A program made the position numbers and the translations under genes. A DNA stretch of 4,395 nucleotides from a virus (lineage: Duplodnaviria > Heunggongvirae > Uroviricota > Caudoviricetes), in IMG/VR virus record IMGVR_UViG_2657245528_000002; one strand, written 5' to 3'. Below the pieces are notes generated by a model. The model did not search any database, was not told the origin of the DNA, and saw only the letters and a list, made by a program, of their open reading frames with translations. Of this stretch, positions 1 through 3,463 are shown piece by piece; position 1 is the first letter of the stretch; each line of letters opens with the position of its first letter.

Positions 1-230
1 AACAAATCCAGGCTACTGTGTTTAGTAATCAGATTTGTTCGTGACCGATATGCACGGGCAAAACGGCATCAGGTTGTTAGCGCAACCTCTTGCCACCCGC
101 TTTCACGAAGCCAGCCATTGAGCTGGTTTTCTTTTATGCAAAGCACACCGCACCGTAGCCACAGCGGATAAGGTGATTATTTTGGTCTGTCTGGTATTTG
201 GTTTGATGCGCTTTCAGAAAGGTCGTGCTT

Positions 231-265
231 AAAACGCAAAAAGCCCCGAGCTATTAACTCAGGGC
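231..265 (-). terminator. Rho-independent terminator, candidate tR' (target of Q antitermination)
   Basis: On the minus strand: GCCCTGAG-TTAATAG-CTCGGGGC (8-bp stem including one G.U pair, 7-nt loop) followed by TTTTTGCGTTTT. Stem begins about +31 relative to the predicted pR' start. On the plus strand the same stem has a C/A mismatch and a weaker T tract, so it is oriented for minus-strand transcripts. Confidence 0.7.
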
Positions 266-289
266 TTTATTTAACGAGTGCATTTATCC

Positions 290-330
290 ATCGTTGAGTC
301 AAATTTACCCAACTTTATTCAAAAAGTCAA
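290..330 (-). promoter_or_regulatory. Late promoter pR' with qut site (Q-utilisation element)
   Basis: On the minus strand: -35 TTGACT (330..325), 17-bp spacer, -10 TAAATT (307..302), predicted +1 at A295, and the -10-like pause-inducing element AACGAT at +1..+6 (295..290). The string TTGACT…GAATAAA.TTGGGTAAATTTGACTCAACGATGG matches my recollection of lambda pR'/qut almost exactly. Confidence 0.85.
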
Positions 331-372: not shown

Positions 373-996
373 CTAACGTGTGACCGCATTCAAAATGTTG
401 TCTGCGATTGACTCTTCTTTGTGGCATTGCACCACCAGAGCGTCATACAGCGGCTTAACAGTGCGTGACCAGGTGGGTTGGGTAAGGTTTGGGATTAGCA
501 TCGTTACAGCGCGATATGCAGCGCTTGCTGGCATTCTTGAATAGCCGACACCTTTGCATCTTCCGCACTCTTTCTCAACAACTCTCCCCCACTGCTCTGT
601 TTTGGCTATATCAACCGCACGGCCTGTACCGTGGCAATCTCTGCATCTTGCGCCCGGCGTCGCGGCACTACGGCAATAATCCGCATAAGCGAATGTTGCG
701 AGCACTTGCAGTACCTTTGCCTTAGTATTTCCTTCGAGCTTTGCCACACCACGGTATTTCCCCGATACTTTGTGTGCAAATTGCATCAGATAGTTGATAG
801 CCTTTTGTTTGTCGTTCTGGCTGAGTTCGTGCTTACCACAGAATGCAGCCATGCCGAATCCGGCTTGTGATTGCGCCATCCCCATAGCAGCCATCACATC
901 AGTACCGGAAAGAGAGTCAGAAGCCGTAGCCCGTGGTGAGTAGCTCATCATCGGGCTTTTTGGCGAATGAAATTTAGCTACGCTTTCTAGTCTCAT
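373..996 (-). CDS. Q: Late-gene antitermination protein Q (lambda-type), 207 aa
   Basis: 207-aa ORF beginning MRLESVAKFHSPKSP with the zinc-binding CRDCHGTG…CGRCKGVG motif; near-identical to lambda Q as I recall it. ATG 996..994 preceded by SD AGAGGGGAAG. Followed directly by a lambda-type pR'/qut sequence. Confidence 0.93.
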   Translation of the reverse strand: MRLESVAKFHSPKSPMMSYSPRATASDSLSGTDVMAAMGMAQSQAGFGMAAFCGKHELSQNDKQKAINYLMQFAHKVSGKYRGVAKLEGNTKAKVLQVLATFAYADYCRSAATPGARCRDCHGTGRAVDIAKTEQWGRVVEKECGRCKGVGYSRMPASAAYRAVTMLIPNLTQPTWSRTVKPLYDALVVQCHKEESIADNILNAVTR

Positions 997-1540: not shown

Positions 1541-1914
1541 GACTTAATCTTCCCCTCCCTCAGCAGTATCGCCTGCGTTCTGATCACGCCTTCGAGGTGG
1601 TAAAGTCTGGCGTCTTTGTTGTCGAGATTATGGGTGCGTCGGTCGATTTCATCGTGACACGCACTACAAGCCCATGCACCGATCAGGTCGTCAGGCTTCA
1701 TTCCCGTTCCGCAAATTCCAGCCATCCGGTAATGTGCCAGAACTGTNNNNNNNNNNNNNNNNNNNNNNNNNNNNNNNNNNNNNNNNNNNNNNNNNNNNNN
1801 NNNNNNNNNNNNNNNNNNNNNNNNNNNNNNNNNNNNNNNNNNNNNNNNNNNNNNNNNNNNNNNNNNNNNNNNNNNNNNNNNNNNNNNNNNNNNNNNNNNN
1901 NNNNNGTTAGCCAT
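1537..1914 (-). CDS. ybcO: YbcO-like DUF1364 protein (putative nuclease); 5' portion hidden by the N run, true start and length uncertain
   Basis: Unmasked C-terminal 69 aa TVLAHYRMAGICGTGMKPDDLIGAWACSACHDEIDRRTHNLDNKDARLYHLEGVIRTQAILLREGKIKS match my recollection of E. coli DLP12 YbcO (…SVLAHIRLTGLCGTGTKPPDLIATIACSACHDEIDRRTH…). An ATG at 1914..1912 (MAN…) overlaps the antirepressor stop as TAATG. Stop TGA overlaps the rusA ATG (ATGA). Confidence 0.7.
   Translation of the reverse strand: MANXXXXXXXXXXXXXXXXXXXXXXXXXXXXXXXXXXXXXXXXXXXXXXXXXXXXXTVLAHYRMAGICGTGMKPDDLIGAWACSACHDEIDRRTHNLDNKDARLYHLEGVIRTQAILLREGKIKS
1747..1905. other. Run of 159 N (masked or unsequenced gap)
   Basis: Directly visible in the sequence; length is an exact multiple of 3 and falls inside the 5' half of the ybcO-like reading frame. 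Confidence 1.
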
Positions 1915-2636
1915 TAAGCAGCCTCCCCTGTTACTTTCAGCATTCCGTTATCGAGCAACTTTCTGGTCAGCCACTGTTGACCGCGCCCGGTGATTTTTGT
2001 GGTGAACGATATCTGTATTCCGTGATTTGTGTTGACCGCTGTTTCTTTCACTGTGAAATAGCCGCGATCCATATATTCCTGCATTGGCACATTGCGCCGG
2101 GAACCTGAAGCAATAAGGATTTTGTGATCACGCATCCACGCAAACAGTTTGTTTTGACCAATACCAACAACCTTTGCAAAGTTTCCAATCAAAATTCCGC
2201 TGGCCTCGCCAACGCGATCGGCAAACTCAACTTTAGGTGCGACAATTGCGAGCTGGTTTTCCAGTTGCATTTTCTGCTCAGCAAGATCGGCAGCAAGGCG
2301 CAACGCTTCCGGTAGCGTTTTGGGGATATTAACCGCAGCTTCTTCAAGCTCTCGCCAGCGGTCAACAAGGCGAGCGGTGAACTCTGGCGACAACTGGGCA
2401 ACAACGACAATACTGTCTCGCTTACCTTGTTCGCCCTCGAAGACGTAATGCTCGTACTGAACATTGAACCCTAAGTTATTGATTCTTTCGGAAACCTCAA
2501 TTTGAGGAAGCCGGATAACACCATTTTTAGCCAGCGTTTCGATGGTACGTTTCACATTGTCATGACGCTTACCCACCAACTCAGCGATTTCAATGCTTGT
2601 CATTTTGATGGCATTGCCATTTATTAACTCATTCAT
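1914..2636 (-). CDS. Phage antirepressor-like protein: N-terminal Rha-type domain plus C-terminal KilAC/ANT domain (Roi-like), 240 aa
   Basis: N-terminus MTSIEIAELVGKRHDNVKRTIETLAKNGV is typical of the phage regulatory protein Rha family; C-terminal half (…FADRVGEASGILIGNFAKVVGIGQNKLFAWMRDHKILI…) resembles the KilAC antirepressor domain. ATG at 2636..2634 preceded by SD GAGGAAG. Position and size fit the roi gene of HK022/HK97-type phages. Confidence 0.8.
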   Translation of the reverse strand: MNELINGNAIKMTSIEIAELVGKRHDNVKRTIETLAKNGVIRLPQIEVSERINNLGFNVQYEHYVFEGEQGKRDSIVVVAQLSPEFTARLVDRWRELEEAAVNIPKTLPEALRLAADLAEQKMQLENQLAIVAPKVEFADRVGEASGILIGNFAKVVGIGQNKLFAWMRDHKILIASGSRRNVPMQEYMDRGYFTVKETAVNTNHGIQISFTTKITGRGQQWLTRKLLDNGMLKVTGEAA

Positions 2637-3430: not shown

Positions 3431-3463
3431 CAAATAAAAAGGCCTGCGATTACCAGCAGGCCT
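3431..3463 (-). terminator. Rho-independent terminator, lambda tR2-like
   Basis: On the minus strand: AGGCCTGC-TGGTAATC-GCAGGCCT (perfect 8-bp stem, 8-nt loop) followed by TTTTATTTG. Lies between the helicase stop and ninB start; matches my recollection of lambda tR2 just upstream of ninB. Confidence 0.85.

Follow-up and report, generated by a model that had tools for sequence, protein, structure and literature searches.

The short-leader late promoter region of a P22-, HK97- and HK022-like lambdoid prophage sequence

How does a lambda-type Q protein serve a late promoter whose terminator follows almost at once? Besides gene Q itself and the late genes, a Q cassette includes the promoter pR', a sigma-dependent pause element and a terminator (PMC9388147). 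In the stretch of viral DNA analyzed here (4,395 nt; hereafter the window), an initial annotation had placed a lambda-type pR'/qut and, directly behind it, an intrinsic terminator within positions 231–330, and had implied that the arrangement was unusual. Both elements are indeed present at the coordinates given, on the minus strand. We conclude that region 231–330 is very probably the late-operon control region of a lambdoid prophage of the P22/HK97/HK022 type. The element is already known, being the usual late switch in lambdoid phages of these three types, and at least one GenBank record annotates it.

The genes of the window lie on the minus strand and form a lambdoid early-right/nin region, in the order DnaB-like helicase, NinB, NinE, NinF, Rha/ANT, YbcO, RusA, NinH and Q. 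Gene Q is located just upstream of pR', and its product is identical to lambda Q at 205 of 207 residues (99%), which is consistent with the earlier proposal that Q would have to suppress the leader terminator. The window stops short of the late genes. In HK544, whose element is identical, genes for holin, endolysin and Rz follow, with the holin start ∼62 nt past the window end.

Elsewhere in the nin region, a 240-amino-acid antirepressor-like gene of the Rha/ANT (KilAC-domain) type is found between NinF and YbcO (1914–2636, minus strand); it is a mosaic insertion, absent from lambda. A run of 159 N (1747–1905) masks the 5' part of the YbcO-like nuclease gene, and because of this run the listed open reading frame at 1537–1914 has no verified protein. 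Between the helicase gene and ninB there is a strong terminator-like hairpin (AGGCCTGC...GCAGGCCT, then TTTTTATTT; 3440–3463, minus strand), at what we take to be the position of lambda tR2, the start of the nin region.

Promoter, pause module and leader terminator

The late control region and the adjacent Q gene comprise the following features, in the direction of transcription.

373–996, minus strand: gene Q, late-gene antiterminator of the lambda type (Pfam Antiterm PF03589, E = 1.3e-57; PHROG 127)
325–330, minus strand: pR' -35 hexamer TTGACT, the same as in lambda (promoter scan)
304–324, minus strand: putative Q-binding element (QBE, the 'qut' DNA site) in the promoter spacer, TTTTGAATAAAGTTGGGTAAA here versus TATTGAATAAAATTGGGTAAA in lambda
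302–307, minus strand: pR' -10 hexamer TAAATT (promoter scan and lambda comparison)
297–302, minus strand: -35-like TTGACT at -7 to -2, the same sequence as in lambda
290–295, minus strand: +1 (A295) and the sigma70-dependent pause element AACGAT (+1 to +6), invariant across eight aligned phages
279–289, minus strand: discriminator GGA (+7 to +9) and expected pause site C280/A279 (+16/+17), which are GGG and C/G in lambda
240–268, minus strand: tR'-equivalent intrinsic terminator hairpin, +28 to +56, of 13 bp with a 3-nt loop (terminator scan, folding and conservation)
231–242, minus strand: U tract UUUUUGCGUUUU, +54 to +65 (terminator scan and lambda comparison)

The assignment of pR' is carried by the comparison with lambda. 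The lambda pR'/qut 43-mer matches 288–330 (minus strand) at 41 of 43 positions, and no match was obtained in 200 shuffles; the promoter scan by itself is non-significant, with three sites versus 4.0 expected. The two hexamers are separated by a spacer of 17 nt. The QBE within it is lambda-type by sequence and carries two substitutions relative to lambda, each variant being seen with both classes of leader described below. By homology to lambda pR', the promoter is expected to fire constitutively.

From -12 to +8 the window and lambda are identical, a segment that includes AACGAT and the -35-like TTGACT; in lambda, the latter is the spot at which sigma region 4 repositions in the Q-loading complex (PMC9388147 and general knowledge). 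The initial annotation had extended this identity, over promoter, start site and pause element, to about +14. It holds for the pause element but is complete only through +8, and 11 of the 15 positions from +9 to +23 match, with differences at +9 and +11 and, later, at +15 and +17. Two of these differences fall at positions that have been studied in lambda, where the +16/+17 pause receives contributions from the GGG at +7 to +9 and from an elemental pause sequence (G-10, Y-1, G+1) that corresponds to G7, C16 and G17 (PMC5001585). The window has G7, C16 and A17, and therefore two of the three elemental pause positions; likewise, its discriminator GGA shares two of three bases with GGG. By analogy with lambda, the polymerase would pause at about +16/+17. 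Since GGA differs at +9, and A17 at +17, from bases published as affecting pause strength, pausing may be weaker here, or shifted.

The hairpin is the sole inverted repeat within positions 150–400. Its predicted free energy is -18.6 kcal/mol, and the leader folds with a z score of -3.7 relative to shuffled sequences. The U tract that follows consists of UUUUU (+54 to +58), GCG and a further UUUU ending at +65 (position 231). Termination may be incomplete as a consequence of this interruption (five U, GCG, four U). The leader RNA is predicted to end at about +57 to +62, giving a default transcript of about 57–62 nt, or ∼58 nt, within the ∼55–65 nt estimated originally.

A second pairing is available to the read-through RNA, in which +11 to +17 (AAAUGCA; 279–285, minus strand) can pair with +58 to +64 (UGCGUUU; 232–238, minus strand), and which would enclose the terminator hairpin in a longer helix. 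In HK620 the downstream sequence differs (CAUUU), and by eye it still pairs with AAAUG. This complementarity may be a chance product of a U-rich tract.

Lambda homology, the replacement cassette and Q loading

By blastn, the window aligns with lambda at 97% identity from the start of Q to +23. From +24 onward the two are unrelated (1 of 17 positions identical), and homology resumes well beyond the terminator, so that two further features can be defined.

111–272, minus strand: 162-nt cassette, +24 to +185, in place of 405 nt of lambda (+24 to +428; blastn)
1–110, minus strand: segment matching lambda 45015–45124 at 96%, upstream of the holin gene S (blastn)

The cassette boundaries are thus +23/+24 and +185/+186. 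In lambda, the tR' hairpin begins at +135 and its U run extends to near +195, which fits the 194-nt length of lambda 6S RNA. A 6S-type leader of 194 nt is absent from the window, where lambda homology ends at +23 and a terminator begins at +28. Judged from this alignment, the short leader is the probable product of a mosaic exchange, in which a cassette with its own terminator replaced the lambda sequence. The left joint of the cassette lies just past everything known as needed for Q loading. On the opposite strand, a terminator-like hairpin (GAAGCCAGC...GCTGGTTTT, then CTTTTATG; 107–130, plus strand) is placed exactly at the joint where lambda homology resumes; it would halt transcription that runs antisense to the late operon and heads towards Q.

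The Q-loading signals of lambda are DNA elements, namely the QBE, which lies between -35 and -10, and a pause element (+1 to +6) (PMC9388147; PMC4914094). Q engages the paused complex at an RNA length of 16–25 nt, and cooperation with NusA occurs only below ∼30 nt of RNA (PMC4914094). As the RNA grows from 12 to 15–16 nt, its 5' end threads into and through the torus of lambda Q (PMC9388147). Q-modified complexes remain anchored, and scrunch, until the RNA is ∼24–28 nt long, with the sequence from +17 to +36 affecting escape (PMC4005639).

Transferred to the window, these observations suggest the following course of events. From a constitutively firing pR', sigma70-bound RNA polymerase would pause near +16 through rebinding of sigma to the -10-like AACGAT (+1 to +6). 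When Q is lacking, the polymerase would escape and terminate at the hairpin and U tract (+28 to +58), freeing the ∼58-nt leader RNA. Once Q has accumulated, it would bind the QBE in the spacer and load, together with NusA, onto the paused complex, with the nascent RNA threading through the Q nozzle. Polymerase modified in this way is predicted, by analogy with lambda, to read through the leader terminator and those beyond it, and so to reach the genes for lysis and virion formation.

The initial annotation had seen in the close spacing a tighter geometry than in lambda. The distance is indeed short. However, the 5' arm of the hairpin begins only at +28, so Q loading would be complete before any terminator RNA exists, the RNA threading the Q nozzle at 15–16 nt (PMC9388147), and the short distance therefore poses no mechanistic difficulty. 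The two arrangements amount to a natural deletion experiment, in which one and the same Q is paired with a terminator either at +28 or at +135.

Distribution, existing annotation and other readings of the leader

Over 420 nt, from the end of Q through promoter and leader into the downstream sequence, the window is 98.8% identical to HK544, 95%–98% identical to Emek, HK140, HK022, HK97 and many mEp and HK phages, and about 88% identical to more distant Salmonella phages such as PS34. The element itself (111 nt) is identical in HK544 (100%) and is matched at 99% in HK97 and 97% in P22; identities of 95%–99% extend across HK97, HK022, P22, epsilon34, Emek, HK620 and many mEp and HK phages. At least 80% of it is covered in 84 phage records, whereas lambda-type records match only to about +23. 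Alignment of eight phages led to the same picture of a common short element with lambda matching only to about +23. Among complete E. coli genomes, 333 of 5426 contain the whole element, and a further ∼210 contain only its promoter-proximal part. About 6% of these genomes thus carry the short-leader type of prophage.

To compare leader classes, we scanned viral contigs for the invariant pR' core (the 15-mer TTGGGTAAATTTGAC), added the phages fetched individually, and confirmed each site by an adjacent pause element. Of 100 lambda-type pR' sites confirmed in this way, 56 have the short leader and 44 the long leader of lambda. The same 15-mer, applied to bacterial genome contigs, is too short a pattern for 596 Gb, and nearly all of its matches there are chance occurrences in unrelated bacteria. 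In both leader classes the median identity to lambda Q is 206 of 207 residues, and no residue is specific to either class. With 56 of the 100 sites, the short leader is the commoner partner of lambda-type Q and lambda represents the minority form. The arrangement therefore does not stand as an oddity, being found in the majority of sampled sites, in the phage records and E. coli genomes counted above, and in GenBank annotation. It carries little weight as a discovery; some of the best-studied temperate phages have this as their normal late switch. Its value is modest and didactic. With lambda in the minority, the short leader would offer a natural template for work on how differences in the pause module tune Q loading and on whether late-promoter leader RNAs have functions themselves.

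Every one of the 56 short-type loci retains an intact hairpin. These loci comprise 16 sequence variants, with predicted free energies from -12 to -19.5 kcal/mol, and most of the variation is in the hairpin loop. Downstream of the U tract, the short-leader sites carry several mutually unrelated classes of sequence, which places the terminator at the downstream end of a conserved Q-pR'-leader module.

The leader also contains a short open reading frame, MHSLNKALS (254–283, minus strand), with an ATG at +13 and a stop codon inside the hairpin loop. In principle, translation could be coupled to termination, with a ribosome on the 5' arm blocking hairpin formation, and the frame has nine codons, with its stop in the loop, in 47 of the 56 short-type loci. 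In the P22-type loop variants, however, it runs to 51–74 codons and is not conserved. Moreover, as read from the sequence, the only candidate ribosome-binding site is a weak GGA three nucleotides before the ATG; the terminator is reached ∼45 nt past the ATG, which leaves essentially no time for initiation; and lambda-type Q control has no need of translation (general knowledge). We therefore reject leader-peptide attenuation on the lack of frame conservation, and regard it as extremely improbable. The extension of the frame in P22-type loop variants explains the 'gp63' annotation of epsilon34; the nine-codon frame and gp63 probably reflect an artefact of annotation and not a real gene.

Existing records annotate the region in different ways. 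The Emek record (JQ806763) annotates a qut site and, at exactly this hairpin, a rho-independent terminator, and the HK544 and mEp records annotate PR' and a lambda Qut site with a 2-bp mismatch. In HK620 (AF335538; 756–798 of the fetched segment L005) the terminator hairpin is labeled 'qut', and in epsilon34 (EU570103; 706–734 of the fetched segment L004) a 'putative PaQ promoter' is given at the PR' coordinates on the opposite strand. Both the HK620 label and the epsilon34 placement look wrong. A literature search with the literal hairpin and leader sequences found no mention of them; the P22 pid paper and a Salmonella prophage review have nothing on the leader, and a BTP1 prophage transcriptome paper describes tRNA genes after Q and reports no late-leader RNA.

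The HK620 label amounts to a different proposal, namely that the hairpin is part of the Q-utilization signal and that the real tR' lies further downstream. That record does give 'qut; putative Q-utilization site' at 15610–15652 and a 'late transcription terminator; tQ' ∼600 bp downstream. A lambda-like QBE and pause element are, however, both present upstream of the hairpin, and the hairpin has the canonical form of a terminator and is the only late-strand site flagged by our scan in that stretch of HK620. Lambda has unrelated sequence at the hairpin positions and yet uses the same Q, and the Emek record calls the hairpin a terminator.

Further evidence against the HK620 label comes from copies of the hairpin outside this promoter context. 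A hairpin of 30–37 nt, 97%–100% identical to that of the window, is found without any lambda-type pR' in three other settings (fetched segments L251, 901–936; L253, 1501–1537; L252, 901–930). In Hafnia phage Meifeng it lies between a Q-like gene of PHROG 753, which has no Pfam Antiterm match, and tRNA genes that are followed by holin. In a prophage of E. coli STEC299 a PHROG 753 Q-like gene precedes it by ∼190 nt and a holin gene lies downstream; GCACAACAGGTAAGAGCATT, the sequence after lambda tR', comes immediately behind the hairpin. In Pantoea phage AH01 it is found ∼100 nt 3' of an endolysin gene. Given its terminator form and these identical copies, after an endolysin gene and after a different Q-like family, we reject the hairpin as a qut component and consider that reading very unlikely. 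The variety of phage contexts instead argues for an autonomous terminator module that is able to replace lambda tR' and does not belong to the Q-loading signal. On sequence grounds, a module of terminator size appears to move between phages and is common to a second Q family and to an unrelated Pantoea phage.

Comparison with known late-leader systems

A leader RNA released at a late promoter might act beyond attenuation. StxS, which is constitutive and is ended by tR' in lysogens of Shiga-toxin phage, is such a late-promoter transcript, and late-promoter leader RNAs have been explicitly suggested as a source of small RNAs (PMC7547250). For phages 21, phi80, 82 and P22, too, the late promoters have been described as giving short RNAs under antitermination control, as relayed in that account from Roberts et al. 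1976 (PMC7547250). By this precedent, the ∼58-nt constitutive leader could be a trans-acting regulatory small RNA in lysogens, more than a by-product of attenuation, with its 5' 27 nt as a seed and the terminator hairpin as an Hfq-binding module. Its layout, with an A/U-rich 5' region free of pairing ahead of a terminator hairpin and U tail, would suit such a role, as would a promoter that is constitutive by homology to lambda pR' and the presence of the element in 333 of 5426 E. coli genomes.

Other observations speak against this role and make it unlikely. A search of the whole window against Rfam gave no match at E ≤ 1. The seed pairs with the translation-initiation regions of HK544 at -15.4 kcal/mol, compared with -16.4 ± 2.0 kcal/mol for shuffled seeds, 70% of which are at least as good. 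The U tail runs for only 5 nt before it is interrupted, the high conservation of the leader is uninformative because the flanking DNA is equally conserved, and the sequence is without mention in the literature searched. The likeness to StxS is drawn from the published description of that RNA and concerns a putative function only; StxS derives from a longer leader by an RNase E cut at +173, is a 74-nt product in contrast to the ∼58-nt leader of the window, and has shown Hfq binding and targets (PMC7547250). It is similarly improbable, in our judgment, that the leader, which would be made in every P22/HK97/HK022-type lysogen, has a regulatory small-RNA function comparable to that of StxS, and/or that GGA and A17 change the position or lifetime of the pause and the Q threshold relative to lambda. 

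Phage Louie (PQ850616) has a comparable arrangement, with a lambda-type Q and pR'/qut and then, as in the window, a hairpin and U tract, at +26 to +55. Its hairpin (+26 to +53) is nearer the start site than that of the window and differs from it in inner stem and loop (CGCGG/CCGTG); like lambda, Louie has a GGG discriminator, the downstream genes differ, and the element is 82% identical to the window. The Louie leader folds at -29.2 kcal/mol (z = -4.4). Close relatives of the window vary too little for hairpin covariation to be assessed, and only Louie contributes, weakly. Between the two hairpins, one pair has changed in a compensatory way (A-U to C-G) and two changes are compatible with wobble pairing, with 96% of cells paired, a signal that is statistically weak, as 64 of 500 shuffles reach an equal score. 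Louie (L250, 901–1006) represents a third, rare leader class, whose initial transcribed sequence is a hybrid of the two main classes. In addition, two reverse-strand open reading frames are inserted before its holin gene.

With the lambda pR'-qut-6S RNA-tR' region, the window shares the -35 and -10 hexamers, the -35-like TTGACT, AACGAT and the regulatory logic. The two differ in the discriminator and at +17, which are GGG and G in lambda and GGA and A in the window, and in the terminator, which spans +135 to +195 in lambda (-26.4 kcal/mol) and +28 to +58 in the window (-18.6 kcal/mol).

The late control regions of P22, HK97, HK022 and HK544 (gene 23/Q, P'R, qut and leader terminator) are the same element as that of the window. 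Their Q proteins are equally similar, and their hairpins lie equally far from +1. P22 gp23 and lambda Q have been reported to be interchangeable (PMC8022706). The differences are point polymorphisms only, with the P22 loop being TTTAACCG in place of TTAATAG in the window and the sequence after the U tract varying between phages.
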